Notes under the pieces: model-generated
What the model was told of the DNA's origin: nothing
The model's input: only the letters and a program-made list of their open reading frames with translations
Database searches by the model: none
In this document: positions 2,296 to 6,725 of the stretch, in pieces
Layout of the letters: each line of letters starts with the position of its first letter
How positions within the stretch are numbered: the first letter of the stretch is position 1
Assembly (NCBI GenBank): GCA_044340265.1
Contig: JBIITW010000003.1
Coordinates: 169 to 64,168 of the forward strand
Source of the DNA: Burkholderiales bacterium
GTDB lineage: Bacteria; Pseudomonadota; Gammaproteobacteria; Burkholderiales; CAIKXV01
DNA length: 64,000 nt
Direction of reading: 5' to 3'
Made by a program: the position numbers and the translations under genes

Positions 2296-2955
2296 TCAGG
2301 CAGTGCGCCGGCGTGCGAAGAAGCCGAACAGGCCGAGGCCGGCCGCCATCAGCGGCAGCGCTGCGGGAACCGGCACCGTGGCTACCGCGGCAGACTCGAC
2401 GCCGAGGATGTCGAACGCCCAGGCGTTCGTACGCGCGTTGTAGGTCGTGTTGCCACTGACGTCGCAAAAGGACGGGACGTTTGCGCATGTCGACTGGAAG
2501 GCAGCCGACCCGGTGAAATTTCCCTGTCCCGTGCGGGTAAAGCCGTCCGACAGGTTCGGTCCGATCGAGAAATTGTCGAACTGCATGACCGCCGCAGTGT
2601 ACTGCCCGGCCGCCAGGTTGCCGATCTCGAGGTAGGTATCAAAGCGGGCGCCGCTCAAGTCGACCGCCACGTTCGAGCCACCGTCGTCGTTCTGGCCGAT
2701 GCGCGCACCGGTCGAATCGAACAGGGCGAGGATCGGGTCGAAGCCGCCCCGGGCGATGGTCGCACCCGCCGCGTTCACCCCGCCCGCATAGGACCAGGTA
2801 CGCAGCAAGACGTTGGGCGATGACGCCCCGACGTTGAAGCTGAACAACTGGACGTCATCGTCCTGGCGGAAGGAGCCAGTGAAGGAAAAGTCGGCGGCCT
2901 GGGCTGCACTGGAACCGAGCAGCGCGGCGAACGTAAGCGTCTGGATGATTTTCAT
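2296..2955 (-). CDS. PEP-CTERM (VPxPA-type) sorting-domain secreted protein
   Basis: ORF 2296..3171, start at MKIIQTLTFAALLGSSAAQA (signal peptide; GAGAGG RBS). C-terminus is VPVPAALPLMAAGLGLFGFFARRRTA, i.e. motif + TM + Arg cluster. Confidence 0.9.
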   Translation of the reverse strand: MKIIQTLTFAALLGSSAAQAADFSFTGSFRQDDDVQLFSFNVGASSPNVLLRTWSYAGGVNAAGATIARGGFDPILALFDSTGARIGQNDDGGSNVAVDLSGARFDTYLEIGNLAAGQYTAAVMQFDNFSIGPNLSDGFTRTGQGNFTGSAAFQSTCANVPSFCDVSGNTTYNARTNAWAFDILGVESAAVATVPVPAALPLMAAGLGLFGFFARRRTA

Positions 2956-3281
2956 TCGAACCTCTCGATCGGGTTGTACCGGCGTTCCTCGCCGGAATCC
3001 GGAAAGCGGATTGCGAAGTGACAATGCGCGACGGACGCTTTCGAGACTGTTCGCACGTCTGCTTTTTTGCAAGTTGGCAGACCGTATTGGATAGTCCATT
3101 CGGACTAATCTCGACTGAATAAATCTCCCGCCTCTGCGTTTCTGACGAGCCTGAAGCCGCCAGGCGTCCAAACGCTCAAGCGTCGCTTCCCCTCATCACT
3201 TCGCGCGCCTGAACGAGACGAACATATCTGTCAGCAGGCGCGGCGCCCCCGTCGATGTGCGGGGCCGCCGCCGGTCGTCCG

Positions 3282-3881
3282 CTATTGCGGCGGCTTCACG
3301 CCGGCCTTCTCGGCCTGGATGCGCAGTGCCGTGATCGTGTTGTCCGGGCCCACCTGCGCCGCCACGATCACGTAGACGCCGGGCGCAAGGGCGGACCGGT
3401 CGGCGGGATCGAAGGCAACGACTGGCGTGCCGATCGGCACCCGCACCCGCTGCATGCCGTCCTTGTAGACCATCGTCAGGTCGCCGCCGCTGCTGGTCTG
3501 CACGTTGGCTTCCAGATAGGCGTTGGTCATCGAGGCACCCGGCTCGAAGTCAGACTCCGTGTGGCCCTCGCGGGCGGTCTTCGGGATCATGTGCAGGCCA
3601 CGCGCGACCAGTACACCGTCCGGTCCCTTGACCGCGGTGATGCCGACGAACGCGTTCTTCGGCAGGTCGGCGAGCTTCAGCGCACGCGCGGTGGCAACGG
3701 TGGTCTTGTCGGTCATGCGCATCTTCATCGCCGTCCCGTCCCGGGACTTCAGCGACAGCACATCGCCATCGATGGCAGCGATCGTCGCCCGGATGCGAAC
3801 GTTCTGCGGCGCCTGCGCGAACACGACAGCGGAGGTGCACAGCAGCAAGACGACCGCCGCGAAACGGAAGATCGCATTCAT
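3282..3881 (-). CDS. secreted hypothetical protein
   Basis: C-terminal 199 aa of track ORF 3282..4862. Starts MNAIFRFAAVVLLLCTSAVVFAQA (signal peptide). Its ATG overlaps the stop of the upstream hydrolase gene (ATGA at 3878-3881). Confidence 0.75.
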   Translation of the reverse strand: MNAIFRFAAVVLLLCTSAVVFAQAPQNVRIRATIAAIDGDVLSLKSRDGTAMKMRMTDKTTVATARALKLADLPKNAFVGITAVKGPDGVLVARGLHMIPKTAREGHTESDFEPGASMTNAYLEANVQTSSGGDLTMVYKDGMQRVRVPIGTPVVAFDPADRSALAPGVYVIVAAQVGPDNTITALRIQAEKAGVKPPQ

Positions 3882-4657
3882 GACAGTGCTCCTTCGATCA
3901 GCGCGACCAGCACCGCGGGTTGTTCCAGCATCGGGCAGTGTCCGCTGCCGGGAATCGCCGCATAGCGCGCGCCGGGTATCAGCCCGGCCATGTGCTCCGC
4001 CAGCTCGGGCGGCGTAGTGCGGTCGAGTTCTCCGCACAGGACCGTGGTGGGCGCGGCCAGCGAGGGCAGGCGATCGACGAGATCGAGTGCCGCCAGCGCG
4101 TGGCAGGCCCGCGCGAAGGCCGCCGTGTCGGCGGTGGCGAGCCGGCGCTTGCGATCGGCGACGACTGCAGGGTTCGCCTGCTGGAACGGCTCCGGGAACA
4201 TGCGCCCGATGGCTGCATCGAGCACCGTGTCCATGCCGCCCTCGGTGACCTTGCCGGCCATCAGGCCGAAGGGAATGCGGCCGGCCTCGGGAAACCCGGC
4301 GTTGACATCCGCGACCACCAGCCGGCGGATACGGCCGGGATTGTCGAGCGCGAACACGGTCGCGACGAATGCGCCGAAGCCGTTGGCGAACAGGTCCGTG
4401 CTGTCGGGCAGCGCCAGCGCGTCCAGGGCTTCGCGCAGGAAGGCGCCATAACCGGCGATGCTGTCGATCGGGCGCGCGGCGCTCGCGCCGTAGCCGGGCA
4501 GGTTGATCGTGGTCACGCGGCGCGACGCTGCCAGCACCGGCGCGATGCCTTCGAACACGCTGGCATCGGTAAGCAGCGAATGCACCAGCACGAGGTCCGG
4601 GCCGCTGCCCCACTGCTGGCATTCGACGGCGCGGCCGGACACTTCGATGACGGGCAT
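3878..4657 (-). CDS. alpha/beta fold hydrolase
   Basis: ORF 3878..4657: MPVIEVSGRAVECQQWGSGPDLVLVHSLL...FANGFGAFVA...GSGHCPMLEQP. Typical of the AB hydrolase-1 family. AGAGGAA RBS. Confidence 0.85.
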   Translation of the reverse strand: MPVIEVSGRAVECQQWGSGPDLVLVHSLLTDASVFEGIAPVLAASRRVTTINLPGYGASAARPIDSIAGYGAFLREALDALALPDSTDLFANGFGAFVATVFALDNPGRIRRLVVADVNAGFPEAGRIPFGLMAGKVTEGGMDTVLDAAIGRMFPEPFQQANPAVVADRKRRLATADTAAFARACHALAALDLVDRLPSLAAPTTVLCGELDRTTPPELAEHMAGLIPGARYAAIPGSGHCPMLEQPAVLVALIEGALS

Positions 4658-4770
4658 GGCGGTTCCTCTGGCTTGCGTTGCGGGCGTCCGCGTCGTGGCG
4701 GACAGGAGGCGATGGTCGTCCTTTGGCGGACGGTGGACAAGGGGGCAGAGAGCGTTCCGGTGGGTATCGG

Positions 4771-4881
4771 ATCGAGGCGATGGGACAGCTTGCGCGGCTC
4801 GTGTCCCCCGCCCCCGGGCGCGTGGCCGCGCCCGGGGGCTCCTCCTTTACCTCACCGCGCAAGCTGTCCCATCCCCTCGAT
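4771..4881 (-). repeat. 111-nt long-stem hairpin element, copy A (core reads on the minus strand)
   Basis: Arms 4771-4797 and 4855-4881 pair at 26 of 27 positions. The 57-nt core (4798-4854) contains the perfect hairpin CCCCCGGGCGCG-TGGC-CGCGCCCGGGGG. The reverse-complemented core is 49/57 identical to the copy B core. Confidence 0.85.
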
Positions 4882-4976
4882 CAGCGCATGTGCGGTGCGC
4901 AGGCCAAAGCCGTGCCGCCATCCGACAATCGTCCAGCGCCACGCAAGCCCTGCTCGCACCGCACGGTGATGGAACA

Positions 4977-5087
4977 GACGCGGGTATCGGGGGGCCGGCG
5001 GCGCGAAGTAAAGGCGGAGCGGCCGGGCGCGGCCACGCGACCGGCGGCGGGGGACATGAGCGACGCCGGCCCCCCGATGCCCGCGTC
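4977..5087 (+). repeat. 111-nt long-stem hairpin element, copy B (core reads on the plus strand)
   Basis: Arms 4977-5003 and 5061-5087 pair at 25 of 27 positions, plus one T.G wobble and one G.A mismatch. The 57-nt core (5004-5060) is homologous to inverted copy A. Confidence 0.85.
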
Positions 5088-5180
5088 CTGGCACCACACG
5101 TGGCAGAGCCCCCGATGCCCAGCACGACGAACGCACGCCGGGGTATCGTCCCACCCCGACCCCACCTGCCGAGACCGTCG

Positions 5181-6725
5181 ATGTCTAAACCTGCCGGGAG
5201 CCCGAGCGGCTCCAACGCATCCATCCCCACCCGCGGCCTGTTCATCGACGGCAGCGAACGGCCTGCATCGTCGCCGGAACTGATCGATGTGTACGACCCG
5301 TCGCGCGGCGAAGTCATCGCGCGCATCGGCCATGCGACCGACGACGATGTCGATGCCGCCGTGCAGTCGGCACGTGCCGCATTCTCCAGCGGGCCGTGGG
5401 CGACGATGACGGTGCGGGCGCGGGCGCGGCTGGTCAACAAGCTGGCCGATGCGCTCGAAGACCATCTCGAGGAGCTGTACCAGCTCGAGACCCGCAACAA
5501 CGGGCGGCCGATCACCGAGACGCGCGCCCAGCTCGGCCGACTGCCCGATTTCTTCCGCTACAACGCCGGCCTCGCGCTGGCGCGCCGCGATGCGGTGATC
5601 CCGGTCGAAGGCGACTACCTCTGCTACACCCAGCGCTCGCCGCTGGGCGTGGTCGGCAACTGCACGCCGTTCAACCATCCGCTGATGATCATGGCAAAGA
5701 GCCTGGCACCGGTGTTCGCCTCGGGCTGCACGACCGTGGTCAAGTGCTCGGAGTACACACCGCTGACCACGCTGCGTCTGGCGCAGATCTTCGTCGACGC
5801 AGGGCTGCCGCCGGGCGTGTTCAACGTGGTCACCGGACTGGGCGCCACCACCGGCAAGGCGCTGGCCGAACACCCCGGCATCGACAAGTTCGTGCTCACC
5901 GGCGGCACCGAGGCTGGCCGCATCTCGGGTGCGCTGGCGGCGCGCCACTTCGCGCACCAGACGATGGAGCTCGGGGGCAAGACGCCGGTGATCGTGTTCG
6001 ACGACTACGACCTCGAACAGGCGGTGAACTATGCAGCGTTCGGCGCCTTCATCGCCGCGGGCCAGACCTGCGTCTGTGCTGCGCGCCACATCGTCCAGCG
6101 CAGCATCCATGACGAGTTCGTCGAGCGGCTGGCACGCAAGGCCGCGGCAATCCGGGTCGGCGACCCGGCGCTGCCCTCGACGCAGATGGGCCCGGTGATC
6201 TCGGCGCGCCAGCGCGAACGGGTGCTGAAGCTGGTGGACATCGCCCGCCATGAAGGCGCCCATGCGGTGACCGGTGGCGGCACGCCCGACCACCTCGAAG
6301 GCGCGCTGGCCAACGGCTACTTCGTGCAGCCGACGGTGTTCGCCGGCGTCACCCCGTCGATGACCATCGCGCGCGAGGAAGTGTTCGGGCCGGTGACCGT
6401 GGTGATCCCGTTCGACACCGAGGACGAGGCCGTGCGCATCGCGAACGACTCGCCCTACGGGCTGGCGGCAGGCGTACGCACCGCAGACGTCGCCCGCGCA
6501 CACCGCATCGCACGCCGGGTCGAATGCGGCATCTTCTGGATCAACGACCACCATCGGCTGGATCCGGCCTCTCCCTGGGGCGGGGTGAAGGATTCCGGCA
6601 TCGGCTCCGAATTCGGCACCGAGTCTTTCGACGCCCACTTCAGCGTGAAGGCGGTGATGACCAACGTGTCGGGCAAGCCGTTCGACTGGTACGGCAGCAC
6701 CGAGGGCACGCGCCGGTTGAACTGA
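5181..6725 (+). CDS. NAD(P)-dependent aldehyde dehydrogenase
   Basis: Last 514 aa of ORF 4503..6725. ALDH hallmarks are present: ELGGKTP, the catalytic Cys region AAGQTCVCAARHIV, and EEVFGPV. Start at MSKPAGS; the upstream 226 aa are Arg/Pro-rich translated intergenic DNA. Confidence 0.9.
   Translation: MSKPAGSPSGSNASIPTRGLFIDGSERPASSPELIDVYDPSRGEVIARIGHATDDDVDAAVQSARAAFSSGPWATMTVRARARLVNKLADALEDHLEELYQLETRNNGRPITETRAQLGRLPDFFRYNAGLALARRDAVIPVEGDYLCYTQRSPLGVVGNCTPFNHPLMIMAKSLAPVFASGCTTVVKCSEYTPLTTLRLAQIFVDAGLPPGVFNVVTGLGATTGKALAEHPGIDKFVLTGGTEAGRISGALAARHFAHQTMELGGKTPVIVFDDYDLEQAVNYAAFGAFIAAGQTCVCAARHIVQRSIHDEFVERLARKAAAIRVGDPALPSTQMGPVISARQRERVLKLVDIARHEGAHAVTGGGTPDHLEGALANGYFVQPTVFAGVTPSMTIAREEVFGPVTVVIPFDTEDEAVRIANDSPYGLAAGVRTADVARAHRIARRVECGIFWINDHHRLDPASPWGGVKDSGIGSEFGTESFDAHFSVKAVMTNVSGKPFDWYGSTEGTRRLN

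Follow-up and report, generated by a model that had tools for sequence, protein, structure and literature searches.

Two inverted hairpins in a hydrolase-aldehyde dehydrogenase spacer belong to a dispersed intergenic repeat family of Burkholderiales

Two long hairpins, each about 112 nt and inverted relative to one another, lie between a pair of divergent genes in the window, a 64,000-nt stretch of Burkholderiales DNA. The pair (4770-5087) is one copy of a dispersed, non-coding family of intergenic palindromes, which is apparently undescribed. It is an evenly balanced call that the family is a non-autonomous mobile element of the REPIN/BIME/MITE type whose hairpin acts in the single-stranded state. 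Mobility would then depend on an enzyme supplied in trans, and the folded species would be single-stranded DNA rather than RNA.

The neighbouring genes, identified by Pfam, encode an alpha/beta hydrolase (3878-4657, minus strand) and an aldehyde dehydrogenase (ALDH; 5181-6725, plus strand). A repeat search places the outer arms of hairpin A at 4770-4797 and 4855-4882 (28 nt, 96% complementary) and those of hairpin B at 4977-5004 and 5060-5087 (28 nt, 93% complementary), with stems of 27-28 bp. The same search pairs A with B as a long inverted repeat (4773-4879 and 4979-5085; 107 nt, 73% complementary). The spacer carries an inverted repeat of its own, so the mirror symmetry of the pair extends past the stems (Table 1).

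The sense RNA of A has a minimum free energy (MFE) of -97.1 kcal/mol (z -12.2) and that of B -87.7 kcal/mol (z -7.6); for each, 0 of 200 shuffles were as low. Covariance model (CM) R1 matches A at 4760-4892 on the minus strand (98.7 bits, E 1.3e-18), and the CM match to B spans 4966-5098 on the plus strand (78 bits, E 2.9e-14). A pattern search and a CM scan of the 64,000 nt found these two copies only. The unpaired 5' motif of A, GTAAAGGAGGAGC, is presumably Shine-Dalgarno-like, with 8 nt complementary to the 16S 3' tail CCUCCUUU.

Table 1. Features of the hairpin pair and of the surrounding intergenic DNA, in window positions.
Feature	Position	Strand	Basis or remark
Native conserved block near hydrolase (GGAGGCGATGGTCGTCCTTTGGCGG..GGACAAG)	4705..4741		in L120, L122, L125, L128, without the element
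Block variable or inserted relative to orthologous loci	4747..5121		native flanks align up to 4746 and from 5122 (blastn against L120-L129)
Module A, hairpin repeat	4770..4882	minus (sense, GTAAAGGAGGAG)	arms, CM R1, MFE
A conserved unpaired 3' motif GGCGGGGGACACGAG	4798..4812	minus	pattern match and family conservation
A inner hairpin, perfect 13 bp, 4-nt GCCA loop	4810..4839; arms 4810-4822/4827-4839	minus	repeat search
A conserved unpaired 5' motif GTAAAGGAGGAGC	4838..4850	minus	exact match
Doublet spacer, 94 nt	4883..4976		own inverted repeat GTGCGGTGCG (4890-4899) / CGCACCGCAC (4955-4964)
Module B, hairpin repeat	4977..5087	plus (sense)	arms, CM, MFE
B conserved 5' motif GTAAAGGCGGAGC	5008..5020	plus	pattern match
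B conserved 3' motif GGCGGGGGACATGAG	5046..5060	plus	pattern match
Native conserved block near ALDH (CCGGGGTATCGT)	5138..5151		outside the element

The original prediction described this geometry well. On recounting, A and B are 111 nt each and lie where they had been placed, and their cores are 49/57 identical when A is reverse-complemented (13/57 otherwise). Stem A has 26 Watson-Crick pairs and one mismatch, stem B 25 with one T.G and one G.A, and the repeat search returns the inner hairpin with its GCCA loop. The distances to the hydrolase (113 nt) and ALDH (93 nt) genes are also correct. Arm identity between the copies is low, as had been said, at 15/27 and 14/27 instead of about 16/27; likewise, 10 positions, not about 11, differ on both arms without loss of pairing.

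Across the family, modules are about 110-125 nt long. Each has a 24-30-bp outer stem and an inner hairpin, both variable, with unpaired GTAAAGGAGGAG before the inner hairpin and unpaired GGGGGACA after it. The unpaired strands form a large purine-rich internal loop, with GUAAAGGAGGAG on the 5' side and GGGGGACA on the 3' side; there are possible A/G swaps between the two. The sequence of the outer stem is free yet complementary, and the interior motifs are the conserved part. These motifs are also kept in 45 copies outside the search-pattern selection, while the termini are least conserved (information content at most 0.5 bit beyond +/-20 nt), which agrees with the earlier view that the interior is conserved.

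Selection on the structure, also proposed at the outset, is supported by covariation. Among 100 non-redundant copies, 88.1% of cells are paired, compared with 59.2% when shuffled and 35-47% when slid, and double changes occur at 30/32 pairs. The covariation score is 0.715 versus 0.196 for shuffled data. The inner hairpin (helix 2) is 94% paired with double changes at 6/8 pairs; family-wide it varies in sequence and in length from 2 to 13 bp, and its pairs covary. Short inner hairpins are found in Variovorax. The 3' flanks are C/G-rich.

The structure matches no described RNA family, as had been suspected: Rfam 15 gives no match at gathering thresholds across the whole window, and at E <= 10 over 4600-5250 there are chance-level matches only. 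A literature search for the motif, REP elements or RAYT transposases in these genera returned no description.

Folding is specific to one strand. The GGAGGAG (sense) strand is the more stable in 145/148 copies, by a mean difference of -10.9 kcal/mol, and there are 313 G.U pairs on the sense strand versus 62 on the antisense strand. The bias is -10.7 kcal/mol both in modules co-oriented with the flanking genes and in those anti-oriented, with G.U counts of 65:11 and 68:15, respectively. Since the bias is equal in both, it is the element, not host transcription, that determines which strand folds.

The modules normally occur as a head-to-head doublet of about 300 bp (260-330 bp), which is the repeated unit. 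The sampled loci hold 71 doublets and 27 singles. Every one of the 71 adjacent pairs is head-to-head, as is the window's pair. The mirror layout thus belongs to the element and not to divergent genes. The spacer is usually 30-45 nt (the window's 94-nt spacer is longer), GC-rich and family-specific, and some spacers hold a central palindrome, TTCGACCGTCGAA. Between copies from one genome, similarity stops at the borders of the doublet in one family; in another it runs about 55 nt past one border. Remnants of an inverted partner are retained beside some singles, so singles are at least partly decayed doublets.

The family occupies at least 115 true loci in at least 66 Burkholderiales assemblies, with a maximum of at least 6 loci per assembly among the matches listed. 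In these loci nhmmer finds 190 copies, and CM R1 gives 183 matches across 115 loci (161 + 22). Carriers belong to the Rubrivivax/Ideonella/Methylibium/Rhizobacter group, and the family reaches Variovorax, with further copies on a chromid, and one Burkholderia plasmid. On viral contigs, only 1 of 5 pattern matches is real.

Copies are intergenic and have no fixed gene partner. Only 11/170 share more than 40 nt with a predicted gene, and the neighbouring proteins match 96 unrelated Pfam families, those listed being common metabolic, transport and regulator types (clustering and Pfam). For doublets with both neighbours called, the genes are tandem in 39/55, convergent in 12/55 and divergent in 4/55. 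Counted as units, 25 are convergent, 4 divergent and 48 tandem against a background of 14/16/70% (p = 6e-6). The convergent share is 32% (background 14%) and the divergent share 5% (background 16%), so that units are enriched at gene 3' ends. By copy, 63 share the orientation of the next gene; 90 are opposed, facing a gene's 3' end.

These counts bear directly on gene-specific cis-regulation, in which each copy would be a leader for the gene that it faces, or the pair a protein-bound cruciform of two divergent promoters. The original prediction proposed roles of this kind, and in the window the sense strands do point at the adjacent genes, 113 and 93 nt from their start codons. It named many copies in any context as a sign to the contrary, and this is what the loci present. 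The scarcity of divergent neighbours and the 63 co-oriented versus 90 opposed copies rule out a co-oriented leader as a family-wide rule. A palindromic protein site, moreover, needs neither a covarying stem of free sequence nor G.T tolerance on one strand. Leader and shared cruciform alike fail on the number of copies in every gene context, on the element-intrinsic layout and on absence from orthologous spacers, and regulation of the flanking genes is very improbable.

Evidence from orthologous spacers comes from related loci with the same hydrolase and ALDH genes. In the window the spacer, doublet included, is 523 nt long, compared with 177-242 nt in L120-L122, L128 and L129, where no CM matches were found. 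In the sister lineage L123-L126 the spacer is 361 nt and holds a 46-nt remnant only; part of the window's doublet spacer is also present in L125. Absence of the element from the orthologous spacers of close relatives, which had been named in advance as telling against cis-regulation, is therefore what is seen, save for the remnant in the closest lineage. Conserved native blocks separate the element from each gene, so the control regions of the genes probably lie nearer to them than the element does; the block beside the hydrolase is probably that gene's own control region. On the mobile-element reading, the element would have arrived in this spacer in the window's lineage and be unrelated to the regulation of either gene.

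Two further ideas about the extent of the element were discarded. The 'tail' of about 50 nt to the right of B is native sequence common to relatives. Arms as inverted copies of target DNA were suggested by L125, where the left arm of B is present and the core is missing; but arms of this type are also found at non-orthologous loci such as L110.

Target-site duplication was also considered. At the window locus, CCGGTGGGTATCG (4757-4769) resembles the ALDH-side string CCGGGGTATCG (5138-5148) and could conceivably be such a duplication; it was rejected for want of family-wide support. In 64 doublets the longest flanking direct repeat averages 6.6 nt, versus 6.5 nt in shuffled pairings, and no general conserved target motif was found.

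If the family is mobile, the GGAGGAG strand would have to be single-stranded for the hairpin to form, and a trans-acting factor, most likely a transposase acting on single-stranded DNA, would recognise the invariant unpaired motifs. A search by tblastn with E. coli RayT over the window and all loci (about 0.95 Mb in 8-kb pieces) found no RAYT; the best match (E 0.08) is a radical-SAM ORF. The flanking proteins match 96 Pfam families, and the 25 commonest include no transposase. Nor did any sampled locus show two modules on either side of an ORF, as an autonomous version would. Mobilising genes such as RAYT are usually single-copy. Since only 8-kb pieces were searched, these absences are weak negative evidence. 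The unpaired, perfectly conserved Shine-Dalgarno-like sequence and the possible A/G loop swaps count against mobility, as they resemble an RNA motif more than a site for a transposase.

Alternately, the module may serve the host as structured RNA. A hairpin in a 3' UTR or in intercistronic mRNA would stabilise or process the message, and copies would be kept for that effect, with mobility secondary. It could block exonucleases, as REP does, or be a site for RNase III or RNase E, as Correia and ERIC hairpins are. The enrichment at gene 3' ends fits this, as do the G.U tolerance and the stems, since those of more than 20 bp are RNase III-sized; RNase III processing of transcribed copies is possible in any case. 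Of the singles between tandem genes, 7 are sense and 2 antisense, and one annotated single sits in sense orientation inside a catabolic operon, but the 7:2 skew is not significant (p = 0.11 including one extra annotated case). That 20/22 singles follow a co-oriented gene was discounted, being trivial in convergent regions; only the 9 tandem cases are informative.

Substitutions at orthologous sites also preserve the structure. In three Rhizobacter species, orthologous doublets stay paired despite at least 6 compensatory changes and 2 wobbles. This suggests constraint on resident copies, which a function at the host or RNA level would explain at least as well as pure selfishness does; gene conversion from paralogues could also account for it. 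Against host-level RNA, the sense bias is identical in modules that read-through would transcribe antisense, so the selected strand is not set by host transcripts, and read-through of a head-to-head doublet always reaches the antisense copy first. A scan of 4550-5300 found no promoter-like or terminator-like site: an intrinsic terminator (GC hairpin and T-run) is absent there, and there is no U-tract. The window-locus copy was also lost without replacement in a sister lineage. A host-level RNA function is a plausible but doubtful explanation.

The element might instead encode small RNAs of its own, the doublet being two divergently transcribed genes for a structured RNA of about 120 nt. The internal loop would show a perfect Shine-Dalgarno sequence or several GGA motifs, and the RNA could be a decoy for 30S subunits or a CsrA-type protein, or a protein cofactor. 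In the head-to-head arrangement both 5' ends lie at the spacer, so that one central region could drive both RNAs, and some spacers have a central palindrome, TTCGACCGTCGAA; the sense bias of both halves is independent of flanking genes, and the purine-rich loop strands are invariant. On the other side, the window's spacer has no promoter-like site, no conserved motif was found more than about 40 nt upstream of the core in 97 copies, the spacers are short, GC-rich and family-specific, and singles occur without one. With no terminator after the hairpin either, element-encoded small RNAs are quite unlikely.

It is unlikely, though a little less so, that the module is not merely selfish but a new structured single-stranded nucleic acid with a specific partner. 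This could be an outward-transcribed RNA of about 120 nt that titrates 30S subunits or a CsrA-like regulator, or the recognition hairpin of a new type of single-stranded DNA transposase that needs inverted, self-folded ends. In the RNA version, a structured purine loop, perhaps a two-tier G-quadruplex that the inner hairpin bridges, would expose a perfect 8-nt Shine-Dalgarno sequence together with GGA motifs. Such a partner is considered because of the invariant loops, the element-intrinsic strand bias, the compensation at orthologous sites and the lack of a known transposase in the sampled DNA.

REPINs, hairpin-forming doublets of REPs that go with RAYT transposases, are extragenic and multi-copy. 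Most are inverted doublets; the doublet is what replicates, and singlets are its decayed remnants (PMC3116915). The Burkholderiales repeat behaves alike in all these respects. Its two module subtypes form a mosaic with a family-specific linker, like the BIMEs of enterobacteria, and its one-strand signal is as expected for HUH enzymes acting on single-stranded DNA, as in REPIN/RAYT systems. Where REPs have a hairpin after a conserved unpaired 5' GTAG, it has GTAAAGGAGGAG. The short GC palindrome and GTAG-type tetranucleotide of a REP are not found; GTAA... and the inner hairpin only resemble them. Each half is a 110-125-nt compound hairpin, unlike a REP of 20-40 nt, and folds independently of the other, unlike a REPIN. 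Interior loops are conserved and stems are free to vary, which is also unlike REP. A RAYT gene, which in REPIN-RAYT systems is flanked by the repeats, was not found in the 8-kb pieces, a weak test.

Among MITE-like repeats that form hairpins are ERIC/IRU (127 bp) and the Correia/NEMIS elements of Neisseria (reviews: PMC10969869, PMC3184786, PMC2229807). Co-transcription of these elements can occur, and RNases target their hairpins. The repeat is like them in its size class of about 100-150 bp, in its long imperfect intergenic palindromes and in insertion polymorphism between relatives, a property of MITEs that the window locus displays at orthologous sites. In contrast, ERIC and Correia have conserved terminal inverted repeats and TA target duplications, whereas the Burkholderiales termini vary and covary and give no duplication signal; strict head-to-head doublets are found in the Burkholderiales repeat and are not known from ERIC or Correia.

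The ends of IS200/IS605 elements and PATEs are also similar, with subterminal one-strand hairpins, no target-site duplication and strand-specific behaviour. However, in IS200/IS605 the two end hairpins share a strand and have different sequences, whereas the modules are inverted copies on opposite strands, and no TnpA or TnpB gene was seen near the sampled copies. Leaders and riboswitches in Rfam share the strong covariation and invariant loop nucleotides; unlike them, the repeat has no fixed gene partner or orientation, no conservation at orthologous sites and no Rfam match. The contrast first drawn with REP and MITE families thus stands for architecture, in which termini vary and the interior is kept, and not for population behaviour, which is REP/REPIN/MITE-like.

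This repeat family is large and cleanly defined, and its carriers are environmentally important Burkholderiales, including Rubrivivax, Ideonella, Methylibium, Rhizobacter and Variovorax. The covariance model would let annotators mask or label copies and avoid calling them local regulatory RNA by mistake. At the window locus, the hairpins should not be taken as regulators of the hydrolase or aldehyde dehydrogenase genes. The usual REP/MITE pattern is reversed, with a free covarying stem around invariant interior loops. Together with a strand bias set by the element, this makes the family a good system for studying what keeps intragenomic repeat populations structured, and it poses the question of whether a single-strand-specific transposase or an RNA-level function maintains the structure.

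The predicted pair of long-stem hairpins is real, and its two members are inverted relative to each other. When repeats and counts were recomputed, module A (minus-sense) and module B (plus-sense) proved to be mutually inverted copies, 73% complementary over 107 nt, with cores identical at 49/57 positions solely when A is reverse-complemented. Stem A has 26 Watson-Crick pairs and one mismatch, and stem B has 25 Watson-Crick pairs, one T.G and one G.A, exactly as first described. The original prediction also held that the outer arms diverge yet stay paired through compensatory change. This stands, with corrected counts: arm identity is 15/27 and 14/27, and pairing is retained at 10 positions where both arms have altered. 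Shuffled sequence folds far less well than either module, whether treated as RNA or as DNA. Motif and model searches found no further copies in the 64-kb window. The short repetitions listed in the table may be fortuitous, the DNA being GC-rich, or may record how the element was inserted.

Features of the hydrolase-aldehyde dehydrogenase region, in window coordinates
Feature	Position	Strand	Remark
ORF with C-terminal PEP-CTERM sorting motif	2296-3171	minus	Pfam E 2.8e-05; unrelated to hairpins
Alpha/beta hydrolase	3878-4657	minus	neighbour gene
Conserved native block, hydrolase side	4705-4741		between element and gene; GGAGGCGATGGTCGTCCTTTGGCGG..GGACAAG
Inverted repeat of A	4770-4797/4855-4882		repeat search
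Inner hairpin of A	4810-4839		perfect 13 bp; repeat search
Inverted repeat of B	4977-5004/5060-5087		repeat search
Exact 12-nt direct repeat CCCCCGATGCCC	5071-5082, 5109-5120		B's right arm; native, 22 nt beyond
GGGTATCG, related to CCCCCGATGCCC	4762-4769, 4982-4989, 5142-5149		three occurrences
Conserved native block, aldehyde dehydrogenase side	5138-5151		between element and gene
Aldehyde dehydrogenase	5181-6725	plus	neighbour gene

It can be said with high confidence that the pair belongs, as one copy, to a new and dispersed family of intergenic compound-hairpin repeats, and that head-to-head doublets are the family's usual organisation. Two conserved core motifs, used as a pattern on one genome per species, gave at least 119 loci, of which 4 are chance matches; the true family loci number at least 115, from at least 66 assemblies. 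No family in Rfam 15 matches the element, and no description of it was found in the papers searched.

A profile search of all sampled loci returned 190 copies and 71 adjacent pairs. All 71 pairs share the window's arrangement, with a minus-sense module on the left, a plus-sense module on the right and the 5' ends facing. A mirror-image pair is how the element normally occurs. Besides the 71 doublets there are 27 singles (lone modules) and 21 copies that are unclassifiable because they lie near a locus end; some singles keep a fragment of the inverted partner at the expected distance. Two module subtypes are combined within doublets. Spacers are mostly 30-45 nt long (94 nt in the window) and frequently contain a small central palindrome, for example TTCGACCGTCGAA. 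Between doublets of the same genome, similarity is confined to the doublet or, in one subfamily, reaches at most about 55 nt past one border. Thus, the doublet is the copied unit.

In L037 (3836-4313) the doublet spacer is 311 nt and holds another small palindromic element, with a flanking direct repeat of about 35 nt (CTGCTGTGCGGTCGCACCGCCTG[T/A]AAAACCGAGACAGC) and an internal inverted repeat (GGTTGGAGTG...CACTCCAACC); its appearance is that of a further, unrelated MITE nested within the doublet. L039:94-224 is a chimeric module with a covariance model score of only 54 bits. Its inner stem and right arm are of the type found in B and at locus L110, and its unpaired outer left arm resembles that of A. 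Recombination between a doublet's inverted cores could have produced it by inversion.

The consensus fold, derived from an alignment of 100 non-redundant copies, has an outer helix (24 modelled pairs), a large internal loop (5' strand GUAAAGGAGGAG, 3' strand GGGGGACA) and an inner helix, modelled with 8 pairs but in reality 2-13 bp long. Covariation in the module is very strong. Paired cells make up 88.1%, against 59.2% after shuffling and 35-47% with the 3' partners slid; the covariation score is 0.715, against 0.196 and 0.11-0.16, and 30/32 pairs have changed on both sides. The U/C after GGGGGACA also covaries with A/G on the opposite arm. In copies selected by pattern, loop-motif invariance is imposed by the search itself. 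GTAAAGG[A/G]GGAG and GG[G/A]GGACA are, however, retained in 45 partner copies outside that selection. In 7 of these, A-to-G in the left motif accompanies G-to-A in the right, a swap that would fit a non-canonical purine pair, although the 7 may share ancestry. The 5' loop strand contains AAAGGAGG, presumably complementary to the 16S 3' tail; no conserved start codon accompanies this Shine-Dalgarno-like strand. Conservation fades 32-40 nt to each side of the core, and no target-like motif was found in the family's flanks beyond that distance.

Gene context was assigned with a custom GC3-based gene caller, which recovered the window's genes correctly and gives approximate starts. Copies are intergenic; overlap with a predicted gene exceeds 40 nt in 11/170. 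Consistent placement upstream of a co-oriented gene is not seen: 63 copies are co-oriented with the next gene and 90 face a gene's 3' end. Doublets lie in 39 tandem, 12 convergent and 4 divergent regions, the window being among the 4. All classifiable units (25 convergent, 4 divergent, 48 tandem) differ from the intergenic background of 14/16/70% (p = 6e-6). Like REP-like repeats, they avoid promoters and accumulate at gene 3' ends. An apparent tendency of singles to follow a co-oriented gene (20/22) was withdrawn, as it is automatic in convergent regions; among informative tandem singles the split is 7 to 2, to which one annotated operon case is added (p = 0.11). The genes next to the copies come from many families unrelated to one another. 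With contexts so varied, the suggested roles as a gene-specific leader or a protein-bound cruciform shared by two divergent promoters fall away, and the window pair is, with high confidence, unrelated to regulation of its two flanking genes.

Orthologous hydrolase-aldehyde dehydrogenase pairs, reached via hydrolase homologues, bear on the same question. A regulatory element should have been retained in the relatives' spacers, and no model match was found in L120-L126, L128 or L129. The window's spacer is 523 nt with the doublet. In L120-L122, L128 and L129, where the hydrolase has 86-88% protein identity, it is 177-242 nt, without a match even at E <= 10 (L120-L122) or E <= 1 (L128, L129). In L123-L126, whose hydrolase falls in the same 90% protein cluster, it is 361 nt. 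These four share part of the window's spacer centre. A further 46 nt match window 4954-4999 at 91% identity, covering the final 23 nt of the spacer and the initial 23 nt of B's left arm. Non-orthologous loci, L110 among them, carry this arm type too, so it belongs to the element and not to the target. The common ancestor of these two lineages therefore carried the doublet, most of which has been deleted in one of them.

Native sequence is alignable up to 4746 and from 5122 onward. Because conserved native blocks separate the element from each gene, the genes' own control regions probably lie nearer to them than the element does. The hydrolase-side block is conserved in all relatives (L120, L122, L125 and L128), repeat or not, and is probably that gene's operator/promoter region. 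A possible target duplication of 11-13 bp flanks the window's variable block; no such signal was found family-wide.

The sense strand (that bearing GGAGGAG) is more stable than its complement in 145/148 distinct full-length copies, by a mean of -10.9 kcal/mol (Wilcoxon p = 8e-26), with 313 G.U pairs against 62. A double-stranded protein-binding site would show no strand bias, so it is as a single strand that the hairpin matters. This strand could be RNA, and an RNA-level role, either as a 3'-UTR or intercistronic stem-loop or as small RNAs transcribed outward from the doublet, is a serious rival, although compatible with a mobile element. Doublets between tandem genes, whose two halves run respectively with and against the flanking genes, speak against the stem-loop version. 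The bias is -10.7 kcal/mol in each half, with G.U counts of 65:11 and 68:15 respectively, so host read-through transcription does not decide the foldable strand.

Resident copies cut the other way. In three Rhizobacter species with orthologous doublets (flanks 91-96% identical), a single module compared between two species has six compensatory double substitutions, two G.T wobbles and zero disruptive changes. A second orthologous pair has one compensatory change and wobbles that pair on the sense strand only. This reflects either continuing constraint on resident copies or overwriting by paralogues through gene conversion.

With moderate confidence, the element would be non-autonomous, like REPINs/BIMEs or hairpin MITEs; its hairpin would have to fold from one particular strand in the single-stranded state, and a trans-acting factor would recognise it through the invariant unpaired motifs. 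The most economical candidate for this factor is a transposase of single-strand DNA, because strand preference tracks element polarity and not host transcription. Weak tests on 8-kb pieces per genome detected neither a RayT-like sequence (about 0.95 Mb searched) nor a module pair flanking an ORF, and the Pfam families listed for flanking proteins include no transposase. The family is unusual among elements of this kind in that its stems are free and covarying while its interior loops are conserved, one of them containing a perfect Shine-Dalgarno sequence.

Among the matches listed, nearly all hosts are Burkholderiales of the Rubrivivax/Ideonella/Methylibium/Rhizobacter/Aquabacterium/Paucibacter group, with a few Ramlibacter, Rhodoferax and Polaromonas. 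Viral contigs are essentially element-free (1 true match). Two further occurrences came from BLAST against plasmid records and were confirmed by the covariance model: a head-to-head doublet on the chromid of Variovorax paradoxus (NZ_CP138514.1, L130:19838-20098) and a lone module on a plasmid from Burkholderia. In the Variovorax copies AUAAAGGAGGAG replaces GUAAAGGAGGAG and the inner hairpin is just 2-4 bp, so the module does not depend on inner-hairpin length. The sole copy found in a Burkholderia record (sp. SFA1 plasmid AP022310.1, L131:19101-21691) lies between meta-cleavage-product hydrolase and aldehyde dehydrogenase genes of an aromatic-degradation operon; about 10-19 kb beyond it, the same stretch carries IS elements and a mer operon. 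This suggests that the catabolic cluster was horizontally transferred from a repeat carrier; that the window's flanks encode the same two enzyme types may be coincidence. Typical copies also occur on short contigs of out-of-group MAGs labelled Chloroflexaceae and Caballeronia novacaledonica (L062, L059) or Bordetella (L084, L098, L108). Mis-binning of these contigs is likelier than genuine carriage by such taxa, and the repeat could thus be used to flag contamination.
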